From Candidatus Daviesbacteria bacterium (GTDB lineage: Bacteria > Patescibacteriota > Microgenomatia > Daviesbacterales > UBA10151), in assembly GCA_016187025.1 (NCBI GenBank), contig JACPKM010000004.1:99637-163636 (forward strand): a DNA stretch of 64,000 bases, in the 5' to 3' direction. Within the stretch, counting starts at the first letter, position 1, and each line of letters starts with the position of its first letter. The position numbers and the translations under genes are program-made. This document shows positions 4,647-26,222 of the stretch, piece by piece. The notes beneath the pieces were generated by a model that worked only from the letters and a program-made list of their open reading frames with translations, did not search any database and was not told the origin of the DNA.

Positions 4647-5060
4647 ATGATCAACATCATTGTAAACTCAGATCCACGCTATAACATAGATAAAGCAGCA
4701 ATCCGAGCAGCAGTAATTTCTGCTCTTCAAAAGTATAAGGTCACCACCAGAGTCGAGGTTGGCGTAAATATTATTGGTGATAGAAAAATGCATGAGCTAA
4801 ATAGAACGTTCAGAGGTATTGATTCCACCACCGATATTTTAACTTTTGCTCTTGAGGATCCGCAAACACCAACCTTGCAACATATTCCCCGGGTTGGGTT
4901 TGTAGCTGCACCTGATAAGTGGTTAAGGCTGGGAGATATTGTTATTTCTTATCCTCAGGTAGTGGAAGATGCATCTTTGGAAGGTATATCAGTTGATGAG
5001 GAGATTAGAGTTTTGGTAGAGCATGGGGTAAACCATCTTTTAGGTGTTCATCACGATTAG
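4647..5060 (+). CDS. ybeY: Endoribonuclease YbeY (rRNA maturation factor)
   Basis: The C-terminal HGVNHLLGVHHD motif (H-x-x-x-H...H) is the YbeY zinc-binding site. Confidence 0.8.
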   Translation: MINIIVNSDPRYNIDKAAIRAAVISALQKYKVTTRVEVGVNIIGDRKMHELNRTFRGIDSTTDILTFALEDPQTPTLQHIPRVGFVAAPDKWLRLGDIVISYPQVVEDASLEGISVDEEIRVLVEHGVNHLLGVHHD

Positions 5061-18431: not shown

Positions 18432-18683
18432 ATGAGTAATAATCACGACAAAACGCTTCATCTTGATAATGTGAACGATGAGGAGCTACAAAAGAGCTCC
18501 CCTGAGTTGGTTGATGAACAATCAGTTGGTGGACATGATACCAATCCGGAAGGAGTGGAAGGGGAATCCACCGTAGAGAGGGCACATGAGATGGGATTAG
18601 AAGGAGAAACAACTGATGAGGATGAGGGTTGGATGGGAGCTACTGGAAGTGATTTAGTAGGTAATCCCGATGATGAAGAGTAA
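18432..18683 (+). CDS. Small acidic (D/E-rich) hypothetical protein
   Basis: ORF only; an alternative antisense ORF exists. Confidence 0.25.
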   Translation: MSNNHDKTLHLDNVNDEELQKSSPELVDEQSVGGHDTNPEGVEGESTVERAHEMGLEGETTDEDEGWMGATGSDLVGNPDDEE

Positions 18684-18684
18684 G

Positions 18685-19794
18685 CTAAGAGCTTAAAAAC
18701 TTAGGTAAAAGTAGAGGATATTCATTTACAAGATCATGTTTAAGTAGTAGGTTAAACAAGTGTGGGTCTTTGGATTTATAAAATAACCTTATATCATTTC
18801 CGGAACTTAAAAATTCCTTAATTTTATTGTAACCCAGAATATATGCAGCATCTTTGGGAAACCCTCCAGGTTTAGTAGTATCTTTTAAGCCTCTTTTGAT
18901 TCTAAAAGTGACAATATATGCTTGCTTGCTAGATAAATCTTTGATTAATTCCTGATAAATTTCTCTAAAACTTTTATTAATTAAACCTGTGGCTTTGAGC
19001 CGGAAATAATAGTTATCGTAGGCTTGTTTAGTAATGGTTTTTGTTGATATTTCATTATAAACGGCAAGCCCTTCTGATAATAATTCGCCTTGTGCATATT
19101 TGTATAACTTGAGTAGTGGGTTATTAGACCTTTTAATATTTACAAACTGTAGGGCATGGCTTTCTACCTCGTGAACAATTAATCTTTTTAGATTACTACT
19201 GGATCTTTTTACTCCTTTTCCAACGACAACTTTTTTAGATCCAACCCTTATAGTAAATGGATTAAACCCGTCCACCTCCACCGGAAAATTAACAAGTCCG
19301 TAATCTTTATGAAGAATTTTTTGAAATGTATTTTTAATCTCGTCTGCCCCGTATAATCCGGCATCTTCCTTGTCTTCAATGTGTATGGAAGGTAGAATAT
19401 CCTCAAAGTTTTTTATACTTGATAAATCCCAAGAAAATAATTTTAATGCATACTTTGGAAAATTATCCGTCCCAATGGAGTTTATTGTAGCGTTTAATTC
19501 TTCCAGATCCTTTAAAAAAAGTAGTAGATATTCTTTTATCTCATCAGGTATTTTTAGTCTGTGGGTTTCAAGCACTAACTTTATAATTTCTTGGTTTTGG
19601 TCAGGAAATTTACTTGTGTGGTAGAAAAAAGTTGGATTATAGTACCTGGAGTTAAAAAATTTTTCTTTTTCCTCCTCATAATTTAAAGGAGTTAAGGTTC
19701 TGGTTCCCATTTTTAACTTGCTTTTTATTGTTGATGCTTTTGTAGTAAAAACTTTTAAATTGCTTATCATTATTTTTCTGTTTATCAGATACAC
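18685..19794 (-). CDS. DUF1704 / MATCAP-like putative metallocarboxypeptidase (atypical HExxxH, QEGLA-like motif)
   Basis: HEVESH matches the atypical HExxxH zinc motif. The SEGLAVYNE motif and ~370-aa length fit the DUF1704 (QEGLA-motif) family. Confidence 0.55.
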   Translation of the reverse strand: MYLINRKIMISNLKVFTTKASTIKSKLKMGTRTLTPLNYEEEKEKFFNSRYYNPTFFYHTSKFPDQNQEIIKLVLETHRLKIPDEIKEYLLLFLKDLEELNATINSIGTDNFPKYALKLFSWDLSSIKNFEDILPSIHIEDKEDAGLYGADEIKNTFQKILHKDYGLVNFPVEVDGFNPFTIRVGSKKVVVGKGVKRSSSNLKRLIVHEVESHALQFVNIKRSNNPLLKLYKYAQGELLSEGLAVYNEISTKTITKQAYDNYYFRLKATGLINKSFREIYQELIKDLSSKQAYIVTFRIKRGLKDTTKPGGFPKDAAYILGYNKIKEFLSSGNDIRLFYKSKDPHLFNLLLKHDLVNEYPLLLPKFLSS

Positions 19795-19817
19795 AATATA
19801 ACATAAAAAAATCCTAA

Positions 19818-20540
19818 TTAAATTTCTACTAGAATATAAGGTTTTTTTTTGTTTCTTCTTTCTTGTACAAAGATTGAAGCATTATAAACAGGTATACCTG
19901 TTAGTGTTTTACCTTCAGCAGAGCCAAAATGAGCATGTCCATGAAAAACCGCGTTAACTTTAAATCTGTTTATTGGCTCAACTAGTCTTGATGACCCTAG
20001 AAATGGGTGTATCTGGAGAGGTTCGCCAATTACCGTTTCGACAATTGGGGCATAGTGCAAAACAACTACTTTTTTTAGTGTGTGCAGCTGTGATAATTGA
20101 TTTTCTAAAACTAGTGATTCGCCGATTGCTTCCTGAACAAATTTTTTTAATGGTTCCTCTCCAAATGGACCTAGCATGTGGTCGTCAAATCCTCCGGCAA
20201 AACCCTTTGCGCCTGCAAAGCCAATATTTTTGATCTCAATGGGGTCTTTATCAAAGATCAACATTACTGGTGAAAGAATGTGTTTTATTTGATCTTGAAG
20301 ATTGTTTTCATAATCATGGTTTCCTAACACTCCAACTACTGGAATTGTACAAAAATGTAAATTTTTTGTCAGAGCCTCAGCTTGTTGAGTTAGTCCGTGA
20401 TCTGTTAAATCTCCACATAGTACTAAAATATCAGCACTTTTAGAGATATTTTCGAAAAGCTGGACGAATCTATCAGAATCTTCTTCTTTGGTATGAAGAT
20501 CTCCTATCGCTGCAATTTTTATTCTTGAATTTTTGGTCAT
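19818..20540 (-). CDS. Metallophosphoesterase (calcineurin-like)
   Basis: IAAIGDLHT, GNHDYEN and GHAHFG motifs. The start is at the second Met and overlaps the upstream stop by 4 bp (ATGA). Confidence 0.8.
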   Translation of the reverse strand: MTKNSRIKIAAIGDLHTKEEDSDRFVQLFENISKSADILVLCGDLTDHGLTQQAEALTKNLHFCTIPVVGVLGNHDYENNLQDQIKHILSPVMLIFDKDPIEIKNIGFAGAKGFAGGFDDHMLGPFGEEPLKKFVQEAIGESLVLENQLSQLHTLKKVVVLHYAPIVETVIGEPLQIHPFLGSSRLVEPINRFKVNAVFHGHAHFGSAEGKTLTGIPVYNASIFVQERRNKKKPYILVEI

Positions 20541-21271
20541 ATCTGAGTTGGGTTGTGGAAGTCTTGGTATCCCCACTCTTCAACATCGATCATGTACTGA
20601 TTTCTGGAAATTAAAGGACCGCGGCATACCTTTTGTTGAGGGATTGGAGTTGTCAGCTGTAAGTTTAGTCTATTTATTAACTCATGCATAATCCATTTAG
20701 GTACTTTTTCTCTATCAGAAGGATAGACAAACCTAAAATTTATCAAATGGGCTAGTAAAATTTCCCAGTGTATCTCCATTCTCGATAAAAGCTTTTTCCA
20801 GTCAAGCTCTTTTCCTAGTTTTAGGATCAAGTGGTGGATGTCTGCTCCGTCATAGTGACTTCTATCTTGGACATATGCTTTGCTCCATATAAGTTCAACA
20901 GGAGGAATTAGCTTTGCCTTAATCCCGAAAATATTTGTGGGAGGCGCATTCTTAAACCATCTTTCCTCAACATGCCAAAGCCCTTCTGATGTACCGAAGA
21001 TTAAATCCACATATATACCTTTGTGAAAAATCTTTGCTATCCATCTGGCATCGGTAATTTCTGTTTTAAGTCCATGTTTTTGCATTATTCCAATAATCTT
21101 TAAGTAATCACCTGCCTTACAAAAAATGTCTAAATCCTTTGTGGGACGGTTAATACCTGTATACTTCATCACAGCAATTGTTCCTCCTAGCAACACAGGT
21201 ATTTTATTGTCGTTTAAAATTTGCAAGACTTTTGCATAAAATGCCTCAGTATCTTTATCAAACAAATTCAT
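20537..21271 (-). CDS. Minimal Pol-beta-like nucleotidyltransferase fold protein
   Basis: LGGTIAV...KDLDIF (G[GS]x~14DhD) with a third acidic position at YVDLIFG. Confidence 0.5.
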   Translation of the reverse strand: MNLFDKDTEAFYAKVLQILNDNKIPVLLGGTIAVMKYTGINRPTKDLDIFCKAGDYLKIIGIMQKHGLKTEITDARWIAKIFHKGIYVDLIFGTSEGLWHVEERWFKNAPPTNIFGIKAKLIPPVELIWSKAYVQDRSHYDGADIHHLILKLGKELDWKKLLSRMEIHWEILLAHLINFRFVYPSDREKVPKWIMHELINRLNLQLTTPIPQQKVCRGPLISRNQYMIDVEEWGYQDFHNPTQI

Positions 21272-21375
21272 AAACTTAAGATAAGATCTGGAGATTAAGG
21301 GTAAATAAAGATCTAGTAATAAACTAGAAAGAGAAATTAAAGATTTTAGAGTAAAAAAAGCATAGAATATTAAAT

Positions 21376-22008
21376 ATGAAATTTGAAAGCCGAAAAAGTG
21401 CAGGGATTGCCTTATCTGATAAGCTGTCTAGGCTGAGTTTAGAGGATCCAGTGATTCTTGCTTTGCCCAGAGGGGGAATTCCAGTGGGGTATGAGATAGC
21501 AAAAAAGTTGAATGCACCTTTAGATATTTTAGTTGTAAGAAAGCTAGGAGCTCCTTTACAAAAAGAGTTTGCCATAGGAGCAATTGCCGAAGGTGATATC
21601 AAAGTTCTAGACGAGGATTCAATCGGTAAGCTCAACATCACAAGGGAGCAACTGGGAAAAATTATCCTACAAGAAAAACAGGAGCTTGAAAGAAGGATCA
21701 AGATTTATAGAGGTGACAAAACCATGCTGAATGTAATAAATAAAGATGTTATTCTGGTTGATGATGGTGTTGCGACAGGTATAACCTCACTTGCTGCAAT
21801 AAAATTTTTAAAAGCTCATTTCCCAAAACAGATAATTTTGGCCACTCCGGTTTGTTCAAAAGAAGCTTTTTTGCTTTTGTATGCTTCTTTAGATAAATTT
21901 ATCTGCCTGATAGTGCCTACCAGATTCAGAGCCGTGGGTAGCTGGTATAGGAGCTTTGGGCAGTTATCAGATACAGAGGTTGTGAATTTGTTAAATTCTA
22001 CAAGATAA
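21376..22008 (+). CDS. Phosphoribosyltransferase domain protein
   Basis: PRPP-binding loop VILVDDGVATGIT. Confidence 0.75.
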   Translation: MKFESRKSAGIALSDKLSRLSLEDPVILALPRGGIPVGYEIAKKLNAPLDILVVRKLGAPLQKEFAIGAIAEGDIKVLDEDSIGKLNITREQLGKIILQEKQELERRIKIYRGDKTMLNVINKDVILVDDGVATGITSLAAIKFLKAHFPKQIILATPVCSKEAFLLLYASLDKFICLIVPTRFRAVGSWYRSFGQLSDTEVVNLLNSTR

Positions 22009-24585: not shown

Positions 24586-24921
24586 TTATCTCCTGTCTCT
24601 TTTGTAAAAGTTTCTATTATTATCTCTATAATTATCTCTGCCTCGATTATTATTTGAATAAGAATTAGATCTTTCTTCTCTAGGTCTTGCAACTGAAACA
24701 CCTAGTCTTCTGCCTTCTAAATCTGAACCATCAAGCTTTTTTATAGCTTCTTGTGCTGCTGCGTCATCTGCCATTTCTACAAATCCAAAACCTTTGCTTT
24801 GATTGGTAAATTTATCTGTTATAACATTGGCAGATAAAACTTGCCCAAACTGAGAAAATAACTCATTTAGTTTTTGATCATTAATTGAATAGGGAAGTCC
24901 CCCAACAAATAACTTAGTCAT
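24586..24921 (-). CDS. RRM-type RNA-binding protein with Arg/Asn/Asp-rich tail
   Basis: RNP2 LFVGGL and RNP1 KGFGFVEM. Confidence 0.85.
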   Translation of the reverse strand: MTKLFVGGLPYSINDQKLNELFSQFGQVLSANVITDKFTNQSKGFGFVEMADDAAAQEAIKKLDGSDLEGRRLGVSVARPREERSNSYSNNNRGRDNYRDNNRNFYKRDRR

Positions 24922-24944
24922 TTATGTATCCTCCTTTCTAAATA

Positions 24945-26222
24945 TTAACTATCTATAAACGTTAAAGCATAACCCATTTTTCCAGCTCTTCCTGTTCTTC
25001 CAATTCTATGAATATAATCTTCATAAGTTTGTGGTAGGTCATAGTTTATCACATGTGTTACATTATCTATATCTAACCCTCTTGATGCAACATCTGTTGC
25101 TAAAAGAATCTTGATTGCATTCTGTTTAAAGCTTTGCAAGACTCTTTGTCTTTGAGATTGTCTTTTATCTCCATGAATTGCTCCTACTTTGAAACCTCGG
25201 AATTCCAGCTCCTTGTTTAGCTTTTCAATGCCATGCTTGGTTCTTCCAAAAATTAAAACTTTATCAAAGCCATCTTGTATTAAAAGATCATGGAGCTGAT
25301 CTAGCTTTTTTTGGTTACTGATTACTTTAACAACATCTTGTTCTACATTTTCTGGGGTATCTGTCTTTTTTACAGAAATAGTCACTGGATCAGCTACAAA
25401 AGATCTAAGTATATCTTGTATCTTAGGTGAAATGGTTGCTGAGAAAAAAAGTGATTGTCGCACCGCTGGCATACGAGAAATAAAGTATTTAATATCATTT
25501 ATAAATCCAATATCCACCATTAAATCCACCTCATCCAGAACAAAGTTTGAATAATCCTCGAGATGAATTAGTTTGCGCTCTATTAAGTCTTTTAGTCTTC
25601 CAGGTGTTGCAATTACCACATGCGGAGATCTTTTTATATCTTTAATTTGTCTGTTAATGTTGGTTCCTCCAATGGTTACTGCGGAGTAAAGCTTCATATC
25701 CCAAGTAAGGTTTTTAAACTCGTCTCTAATTTGTAAAGCTAACTCTCTGGTTGGGGCGATAATTAATACTTGCTGGTTGCGATCCGAATAGATTTTTTGA
25801 ATAAGAGGAATTAAAAACGCTGCTGTTTTACCTGTACCTGTTGTGGCAAGTCCAATGACATCTCTTCCCTGAAGGATTGGACCGATTGTCTGGGATTGTA
25901 TCGGAGTGGGTTTTGTAAATCCACGACTTGCAATATTTTGTTGTAAGGCTTGAGCAAGATTAAAAGATTCAAAATTATGAGATTCAGCTTGCTGGAATTC
26001 CATAGAAGGATTGGCTTTGCGGATAAACATGTTAATATTTGCTCCTTCTAGCGTGCTTTTCCTGGGACCTTTGCCTCTGCTATAGGAAGAAAATCTGGGT
26101 CTGTTAAACCTGCCATCTTGATTATGGCTATGGGAAAATCCGCCTGAGGATCTATTGAACCTGTTTGGAGATCCATGACCAGTTTGGAACTGGTTCTGTT
26201 TAAATCTTTGCCTGTGAAACAT
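24945..26222 (-). CDS. DEAD-box ATP-dependent RNA helicase with an N-terminal Arg/Gly/Ser-rich extension
   Basis: ATTGTGKT, PTRELA, DEVD, SAT and HRIGRTGR motifs. Confidence 0.88.
   Translation of the reverse strand: MFHRQRFKQNQFQTGHGSPNRFNRSSGGFSHSHNQDGRFNRPRFSSYSRGKGPRKSTLEGANINMFIRKANPSMEFQQAESHNFESFNLAQALQQNIASRGFTKPTPIQSQTIGPILQGRDVIGLATTGTGKTAAFLIPLIQKIYSDRNQQVLIIAPTRELALQIRDEFKNLTWDMKLYSAVTIGGTNINRQIKDIKRSPHVVIATPGRLKDLIERKLIHLEDYSNFVLDEVDLMVDIGFINDIKYFISRMPAVRQSLFFSATISPKIQDILRSFVADPVTISVKKTDTPENVEQDVVKVISNQKKLDQLHDLLIQDGFDKVLIFGRTKHGIEKLNKELEFRGFKVGAIHGDKRQSQRQRVLQSFKQNAIKILLATDVASRGLDIDNVTHVINYDLPQTYEDYIHRIGRTGRAGKMGYALTFIDS

Follow-up and report, generated by a model that had tools for sequence, protein, structure and literature searches.

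A 64,000-nucleotide stretch of a Candidatus Daviesbacteria genome (contig JACPKM010000004.1, positions 99,637 to 163,636; hereafter the window), a member of the Candidate Phyla Radiation (CPR), contains three minus-strand open reading frames (ORFs) lying head to tail and coding for a nucleotidyltransferase (NTase), a metallophosphoesterase (MPE) and a relative of the MATCAP peptidases. Opposite-strand genes bound the three on both flanks, so that they form a discrete co-oriented block, and the database homologs matched by each protein (1143 for the NTase, at least 8000 for the MPE and 95 for the MATCAP-like protein) indicate that these are real genes rather than chance ORFs. An earlier note, made from this DNA alone, took them for one operon coding for a nucleotide- or peptide-tag writing and erasing module, or for a signalling or defence cassette. 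The block is better described, with a probability that we put at roughly 0.7, as two separable units, namely a stress-induced NTase-phosphodiesterase module and an adjacent standalone MATCAP-like gene, probably under one promoter.

The gene arrangement in the earlier note agrees with the ORFs, including the ATGA at which the NTase stop codon overlaps the MPE start codon, and from their sequence the two genes are translationally coupled through this overlap. The third gene is further away than the 23 bp previously given, a figure that assumes a GTG start; the NCBI product of 361 residues and the N-terminus of the closest ortholog, found at a locus designated L093 (MRSNQSLILF...KLRMGTKTLTP, compared with MISNLKVFTT...KLKMGTRTLTP in the window), place the start at the downstream ATG and leave a 47-nt spacer. 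Scanning the minus strand between the three genes for sigma-70-like promoters and terminators revealed none, with counts not above those in shuffled sequences. Co-transcription of all three genes is plausible given the overlap, the short spacer and the lack of a terminator-like site between them, and a promoter region common to the window and L093 (see below) makes a single transcript in the window genome probable. The single operon proposed earlier remains probable, but only its NTase-MPE half is conserved.

The NTase and MPE gene pair

The NTase matches Pfam DUF2204 (PF09970) above threshold (33.5 bits, cut-off 20.3) and has a complete Pol-beta signature (G29-G30, D46-L-D48 and D89) of which G30, D46xD48 and D89 are invariant among 20 homologs; by these motifs and its predicted fold it is assigned to the Pol-beta-fold nucleotidyltransferase superfamily. 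The C-terminal 120 residues are helical and family-specific, with invariant residues D144, H147, W158 and W169 and an NFRFxYP motif. Searching the PDB by Foldseek with an AlphaFold2 (AF2) model (pLDDT 89.5) returned MenT1 (E 6e-7, TM 0.52-0.55), ANT(2'')-Ia and LnuA (both E ~1e-6), TM1012 and JHP933 as the best matches; CCA-adding enzymes rank lower, and no structures of CD-NTase, GGDEF, DAC or RelA/SpoT type are among the top 50. Where the earlier note had left a choice between CD-NTase-like, MNT-like and ANT-like classes, the model thus places the NTase in an ANT/Lnu/MenT-like class and not a CD-NTase-like one. Scores for PF14907 NTP_transf_5 (29.0 bits, cut-off 31.2, which some homologs pass) and for AbiEii (PF08843, DUF1814; 13.2 bits, cut-off 22.5) are below threshold, the PADLOC AbiEii profile gives a weak match (E 0.004), and the isoelectric points of family members range from 5.4 to 9.4, which is uninformative as to a nucleic acid or small-molecule substrate. 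A separate 694-residue protein (P0340) contains two tandem domains of this NTase family.

These similarities raise the question of an antibiotic- or xenobiotic-modifying NTase of the ANT(2'')/Lnu type, working with an accessory phosphodiesterase. By sequence profile, the nearest solved structures are LnuA and LinB (E 0.0015), the Pfam Aminoglyc_resit score is slightly over its cut-off (22.2 bits against 21), and the catalytic aspartates are similarly spaced, in addition to the fold matches above. The matches are, however, limited to the N-terminal 80 residues, and the NCBIfam Lnu(C) profile gives 17, a long way short of its cut-off of 300. Moreover, resistance NTases work singly and are typically on mobile elements, whereas the family in the window is a chromosomal one that evolves slowly, is under stress regulation and is obligatorily paired, and we consider a resistance function very improbable.

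The MPE is, from its sequence, a member of the calcineurin-like metallophosphoesterase superfamily, matching Pfam Metallophos (PF00149) with 61.6 bits against a cut-off of 21.5. All five metallophosphoesterase motifs (D14xH16, G43-D44, G73-N74-H75-D76, H162 and G201-H202-x-H204) are intact and invariant or nearly so, as is a glycine-rich, family-specific motif (GFAGxKGFxGGF), which is invariant. The AF2 model (pLDDT 88.9, with low confidence for segment 116-123 of the glycine-rich insert) has Rv0805, MPPED2, purple acid phosphatase, GpdQ and Lmo2642 as its best Foldseek matches (E 7e-10, TM ~0.6). The top fold matches are phosphodiesterases with nucleotides and small diesters as substrates, and the MPE is a probable phosphodiesterase. 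NCBIfam gives weak matches to cAMP and 2',3'-cNMP phosphodiesterases (e.g. CpdA, 22.6 against 225), and homologs are often named 'Icc-related predicted phosphoesterase' by JGI. At two loci (L006 1640-2592 and L085 6569-7447) a frameshift breaks the MPE ortholog into two ORFs, through either pseudogene formation or an assembly error.

The presence of cyclic-nucleotide phosphodiesterases (Rv0805 and Lmo2642) among the closest MPE structures, along with the NCBIfam matches and the frequent pairing of enzymes that synthesize and degrade a signal, could be read as a second-messenger system in which a linear or cyclic (oligo)nucleotide is synthesized under stress by the NTase and broken down by an Rv0805-like phosphodiesterase. 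Such a role appears improbable, since known signal-synthesizing folds are missing from the top 50 NTase matches and the neighborhood has no conserved gene for an effector or receptor; stoichiometric coupling or fusion of a synthase with its degrading enzyme would also be unusual without a sensor domain.

A pattern scan covering a single genome for each GTDB species detected relatives of the NTase in at least 560 species, and an exhaustive HMMER search yields 179 clusters (50% identity) at E<=1e-30. The 80 best of the species loci were examined by phmmer, and in 76 an MPE ortholog (183-300 bits) lies directly downstream of the NTase gene. They derive from Microvirga, Phenylobacterium, Azospirillum, Inquilinus, Sphingomonas, several CPR lineages, and one metagenome-assembled genome (MAG) each of Bacteroidota and Solirubrobacterales, and the module is ~50% identical between CPR and Alphaproteobacteria. 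Nine of the numbered loci (L013-L018, L021, L023 and L032) are low-GC contigs (35-40%) titled 'uncultured Gammaproteobacteria bacterium' but with CPR-type synteny, and NCBI assigns a protein on one of them (P0017, L013) to Candidatus Daviesbacteria; these titles look taxonomically unreliable. Approached from the MPE side, the NTase gene was directly upstream and overlapping in three of three look-ups. The conserved MPE core starts a median of 24 nt past the NTase stop codon at 65 other loci, and at 64 of these the distance is no greater than 70 nt, which leaves no space for a separate promoter.

The two proteins can also be joined covalently. P0380 is a 510-residue MPE-NTase fusion encoded by a single ORF on an NCBI MAG contig (L178 4001-5533). 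Its residues 1-216 share 46% identity with the window MPE and contain the GFAGVKGFGGGF motif specific to that family, and residues 257-485 share 39% identity with the window NTase. The domain order is reversed relative to the operon, and a simple read-through product is therefore not the explanation. All-against-all clustering of ORFs within 5 kb at the 80 loci revealed no third conserved partner, only genus-level synteny (about 24 Microvirga loci). The adjacency in 76 of 80 loci, the reciprocal look-ups, the median 24-nt offset and the fusion together establish the NTase and MPE as a conserved, translationally coupled two-gene module.

At one locus, a full-length LigD gene with phosphoesterase, ligase and primase-polymerase domains is situated directly downstream of the pair on the same strand (L174 5827-8520), followed by a phosphoribosyltransferase (PRTase) homolog. 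A link to DNA repair by way of LigD adjacency was considered and set aside, as L174 is the only locus with this arrangement.

The MATCAP-like peptidase and its relation to the pair

The third protein matches Pfam PF08014 MATCAP (formerly DUF1704) over residues 45-334 with 74.7 bits against a cut-off of 27, so that all three family assignments of the earlier note have the support of profiles above cut-off. The HEVESH and SEGLA motifs that it pointed out are present and align with HEIGTH and EGLA of human MATCAP1/KIAA0895L (PDB 7z5g; phmmer against PDB, E 5e-7). Residues invariant among 21 homologs are H200, E201, H205, E233-G-L-A, R290, K292-R-G, K306-D and Y310, and we regard the protein as a zinc metallocarboxypeptidase homolog with predicted carboxypeptidase activity. 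Its score against the NCBIfam equivalog TIGR02421 (flavohemoglobin expression-modulating QEGLA motif protein) is 87.6, below the cut-off of 338.65, and by this measure it is a relative of that family and not a member. It falls within a CPR subfamily of ~365-residue proteins, to which some proteins labelled as nanoarchaeal are distantly related (28-32% identity). MATCAP peptidases are thereby documented as a CPR/DPANN subfamily in hosts without tubulin.

Convergent to the MATCAP-like gene is a small gene for an acidic protein of 83-85 residues, conserved at 71% identity between the window and L093 (6091-6345, minus strand), and with no Pfam or NCBIfam match for the 83-residue window protein. 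The C-terminus (...NPDDEE) is the same in both, and recalls the acidic tubulin-type tails acted on by MATCAP-family peptidases. More speculatively, and by analogy with that tubulin processing, the CPR MATCAP homolog might trim the acidic C-terminus of this small neighbor.

The MATCAP-like gene is an independent evolutionary unit that is merely adjacent to the pair, and relatives keep it without the pair. No MATCAP homolog is encoded at any of the 80 best NTase loci, and reciprocally neither NTase nor MPE is present at any of 80 MATCAP loci found by a metagenome scan with a MATCAP alignment, in which loci beyond L007-L012 were screened only for five window proteins. Close relatives of CPR type account for 28 of the 80 MATCAP loci. 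The pair is absent from all 16 of the CPR-type MATCAP loci whose upstream sequence extends for 1.5 kb or more, comprising 13 close relatives together with L008, L009 and L011, in the latter three of which the MATCAP homologs are standalone genes. Further CPR contigs vary the genes within the same syntenic neighborhood, as in L173, where NTase-MPE is followed directly by DAGK-PAP2-M16 without MATCAP, and L016, where the NTase gene precedes DAGK-PAP2-GDH without either MPE or MATCAP.

The most informative comparison is with L093, which codes for a MATCAP protein 59% identical to that of the window and is collinear with the window for more than 10 kb (51-88% protein identity) minus exactly the NTase-MPE pair. 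Its gene order is CorA, iron permease, PRTase, MATCAP, acidic protein, ROK, DAGK, PAP2, GDH and M16 peptidase. The PRTase-side intergenic region of the window contains a 19-nt block (CTCCAGATCTTATCTTAAG, 21275-21293 on the minus strand) with two palindromes, AGATCT and CTTAAG, and the NTase ATG follows 3 nt after the end of the block. L093 matches the block exactly (4871-4889, E 3.7e-6), in the corresponding intergenic region and ~100 nt before the MATCAP gene. Because this intergenic region is common to both loci, the pair amounts to an indel of ~1.5 kb separating a single promoter region from MATCAP. In L093, weak similarity runs ~23 nt past the NTase start (17 of 23 positions), a tentative hint that L093 lost the pair by deletion rather than that the window gained it by insertion. 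As a regulon operator the 19-nt block was set aside, being unique in the window and across all loci; it is a candidate operator or 5' UTR element.

The proposal of a three-component tag writing and erasing module, in which the NTase would write a nucleotide or peptide tag, the MPE erase it, and the MATCAP-like carboxypeptidase trim a C-terminal residue of the same target, has to be weighed against this distribution. The shared strand, the overlap and the spacer are all in its favor, as are the probable common transcript implied by a promoter region that abuts MATCAP in L093, and the weak hint that the trio is ancestral and L093 a deletion. Co-occurrence of all three elsewhere, which the earlier note had taken as decisive, is confined to L007, a CPR contig with the same NTase-MPE-MATCAP order; L007 is loosely syntenic with the window, sharing RecR and an M50 peptidase nearby, and so does not represent an independent recurrence of the trio. 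The lack of co-occurrence in both directions, the retention of an intact and conserved MATCAP gene without the pair in L093, and the retention of the pair without MATCAP in Alphaproteobacteria make the cassette very unlikely, and as a system the three-gene tag writer and eraser should be dropped.

Stress regulation and genomic context

Promoter sequences of the type used by EcfG, the general stress sigma factor of Alphaproteobacteria, are common upstream of the pair. The strict motif GGAAC-N16-17-CGTT is found upstream of the NTase gene at 20 of the 66 high-GC loci and a relaxed form at 37, where a background of 0.03 matches per 370-nt stretch predicts ~2 strict matches; the counts are non-independent within a genus, with several families represented. 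The consensus is positioned 100-220 nt upstream of the NTase core in these high-GC (alphaproteobacterial) loci.

A tblastn search with the NTase identified 126 rhizobial, Sphingobium and Azospirillum megaplasmids or chromids, including Sinorhizobium meliloti pSymB, where the match is inside SMb20082 (93442-94344, minus strand). The adjacent SMb20081 (92735-93445; coordinates from the supplement to PMC3616915) is the MPE gene and overlaps SMb20082 by 4 nt, and an annotated ortholog pair in S. meliloti strain R28, which has GGAACTT-N13-GTGTTG upstream, confirms the assignment. Overexpression of RpoE2 raises SMb20082 by log2 4.0 (adjusted p ~1e-26) and SMb20081 by log2 2.2 (supplement to PMC6180224), and both are also listed with the RpoE2 regulon table (PMC3616915 supplement). 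The pair is thus stress-induced in a model alphaproteobacterium. A first guess from strand patterns that SMb20089/90 are the S. meliloti orthologs was ruled out by the published promoter sequence and gene coordinates, and a nucleotidyltransferase in the Caulobacter GsrN paper proved to be an unrelated small gene.

Around the S. meliloti pair (noted at L177 3864-4598 and on pSymB), nearly every called gene from SMb20079 to SMb20096 is RpoE2-induced in the published data, the exceptions being SMb20088 and a small number of genes whose probes were not seen, and this segment is a general-stress gene island. Other members are a DUF1328 gene, a PepSY gene, a phospholipase D gene and SMb20083, a small hypothetical gene with its own RpoE2 motif.

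Regulation of this kind bears on whether the pair is a toxin-antitoxin or defence system, in which a MenT/AbiEii-like NTase would nucleotidylate tRNA 3' ends and the phosphodiesterase would act as an enzymatic antitoxin removing the added nucleotides, by comparison with DarT-DarG. Such a role could account for the MenT1 toxin as best structural match of the NTase, the weak AbiEii similarity, the layout of two tightly coupled genes, a match of the MPE to the PADLOC single-gene candidate PDC-S10 (49.8 bits, where true orthologs score 200-300), and the ~50% identity between distant phyla, which suggests horizontal transfer. The AbiEii scores are nonetheless below cut-off, and control by a general stress sigma factor, the slow evolution of both proteins with stable synteny within genera, and the existence of a covalent fusion all argue against it; NTase genes without an MPE gene at four CPR loci would be awkward for a toxin. 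No defined system and no CBASS match was found among window proteins with PADLOC-DB v2, which also returned nothing for the MATCAP-like protein, and the NTase was absent from phage records searched by tblastn and from IMG/VR viral contigs; the plasmid matches are to rhizobial megaplasmids or chromids. A defence reading of the pair, or of the three genes as the earlier note suggested, has no support from these searches, and we regard a toxin-antitoxin function as unlikely.

In the window the block has MsrB, low-affinity iron permease and PRTase genes as neighbors, of which MsrB and PRTase are putatively stress-related (Table 1). PRTase homologs adjoin the pair at four other loci (L001 7430-8185, L014 7049-7744, L021 999-1655 and L174 8530-9231), and one is ~4 kb from the NTase gene in L013 (1153-1779) and one next to MATCAP in L093 (4130-4780). 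A homolog of ~210 residues is also seen at L166-L168 (7910-8560), and the gene recurs beside MATCAP homologs. Near the pair, this recurrence involves CPR loci and one non-CPR contig of 56% GC, and PRTase is absent within 5 kb at the alphaproteobacterial loci. A common stress island or regulon may account for this recurrence better than a direct partnership would.

Table 1. Coordinates in the window of the three-gene block, its junctions and the flanking genes.
Feature	Position	Strand	Remarks
NTase gene	20537..21271	-	244 aa; first gene of conserved pair
MPE gene	19818..20540	-	240 aa from ATG; second gene of conserved pair
MATCAP-like gene	18685..19770	-	361 aa; start ATG 19770 (longer ORF: GTG 19794)
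ATGA stop/start overlap, NTase/MPE	20537..20540	-	Read from sequence ...CAG ATA TGA CC...
MPE stop to MATCAP start spacer	19771..19817	-	47 nt, from sequence
Divergent intergenic (promoter) region, NTase/PRTase	21272..21375	.	Aligns with PRTase-MATCAP intergenic region of L093
Phosphoribosyltransferase-domain (PRTase) gene	21376..22008	+	Context only; divergent; Pfam Pribosyltran 57 bits
83-aa acidic protein gene	18432..18683	+	Context only; ORF, convergent; product ends NPDDEE

Two further gene arrangements were noticed. In L001 (1722-3186), on a 1-Mb contig, an SMODS nucleotidyltransferase and an SLATT_4 membrane protein form a CBASS-like defence pair ~3 kb upstream of NTase-MPE that is apparently unrelated to it. 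Elsewhere in the window (24586-26222, minus strand), a gene for an RRM-type glycine/arginine-rich RNA-binding protein of 111 residues is directly downstream of a DEAD-box helicase gene; the helicase has a long basic N-terminal extension, and a conserved 99-residue protein without a family match follows.

Proposed function and comparison with known systems

Several observations weigh against the division into a stress module and a standalone peptidase gene, or limit its reach. Four of the 80 NTase loci lack an adjacent MPE gene, and all four are CPR contigs. The trio recurs once, in L007, and L093 may have lost the pair by deletion, so that the trio could be ancestral in Microgenomates, with a possible functional MATCAP link in that lineage. 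The stress connection was measured in Alphaproteobacteria rather than CPR, and probable co-transcription in the window is judged solely from spacing and absent consensus signals in a group whose promoters are poorly known. The fold matches are moderate (TM 0.5-0.6) and cover enzymes with widely differing acceptors. No paper characterizing the NTase or MPE family was found; a literature search for functional work on DUF2204/PF14907, DUF1704/QEGLA and SMb20081/82 (for the SMb genes, in open papers) found none.

With the pair as a module in its own right, the NTase would most likely transfer a nucleoside monophosphate from a nucleoside triphosphate onto an acceptor hydroxyl, whether at the 3' end of an RNA, on the side chain of a protein or on a small molecule, and the MPE would most likely hydrolyse a phosphodiester or cyclic phosphate belonging to the substrate cycle of the NTase. 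Either of two sequences of events can be envisaged by analogy. Like the phosphoesterase domain of the bacterial CCA-adding enzyme, the MPE might ready the acceptor end for the nucleotide that is then added, or, like the HD domain of GlnD, it might take the nucleotidyl group off again. The module would be switched on by stress, in Alphaproteobacteria from EcfG-type general-stress promoters. The fold matches to MenT1 and CCA-adding enzymes tilt slightly toward an RNA 3' end as the acceptor, which is possible but tentative; we are more doubtful still that the pair carries out reversible modification of a protein or small molecule. An equally doubtful, broader suggestion is that the pair is a previously unrecognised, horizontally spread stress system of CPR and Alphaproteobacteria, performing either reversible nucleotidylylation or end-healing and tailing of a macromolecule, e.g. 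the 3' ends of damaged tRNA or other RNA during dormancy.

General-stress regulons are full of 'hypothetical' genes, and a catalytically intact NTase/phosphodiesterase pair is among the few with an obvious biochemical handle. What has been isolated here is a clean two-gene module, which the general stress sigma factor of the genetically tractable S. meliloti induces strongly, and its presence even in the reduced genomes of CPR bacteria suggests that it is of use to them.

The MATCAP-like protein resembles MATCAP1/KIAA0895L and TIGR02421 proteins in its atypical HExxxH zinc motif, the EGLA glutamate, and a KRG...PG.F.KD..Y block aligned to 7z5g. It differs from MATCAP1 in that the identity is low and local and no tubulin substrate is available in its CPR/DPANN-centered subfamily. 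ATP-grasp partner genes are reportedly found near proteobacterial DUF1704 genes; none appeared in 16 kb of annotated window or in the gene tables of L007-L012.

Among NTases, the MenT/AbiEii toxins include the best fold match, MenT1, with a similar size and a minimal Pol-beta core followed by a helical C-terminal domain. The window partner is, however, a metallophosphoesterase and not an antitoxin of AbiEi/MenA type, the AbiEii score is below cut-off, and the family's context is chromosomal, stress-regulated and slowly evolving. The NTase has its active site laid out as GG...DxD...D in common with ANT(2'')-Ia and Lnu(A)/LinB, but the similarity is restricted to the N-terminal catalytic half, and the NTase has no resistance-gene context. 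The MPE has Rv0805, CpdA/Icc, GpdQ and MPPED2 as its counterparts, including the best fold matches, with identical metal-binding motifs; identity to these is only ~20%, the MPE is far below every NCBIfam equivalog cut-off, and it is distinguished by the glycine-rich insert and by obligatory coupling to an NTase.

The nearest parallels for the pair as a whole may be enzymes in which an NTase is tied to a phosphoesterase. The bacterial CCA-adding enzyme combines an NTase with an HD phosphoesterase, which removes 2',3'-cyclic or phosphorylated termini so that nucleotides can be added, and GlnD combines a uridylyltransferase with an HD uridylyl-removing domain. In the window family a comparable tie would be provided by operon coupling and, in P0380, by fusion, although the phosphoesterase is calcineurin-like and not HD, the NTase is a minimal ANT/MenT-like one, and the two are usually separate polypeptides. 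If the parallel is true, a MenT/ANT-like NTase and a calcineurin-like phosphodiesterase would replace the HD-domain solution of the CCA-adding enzyme and GlnD.

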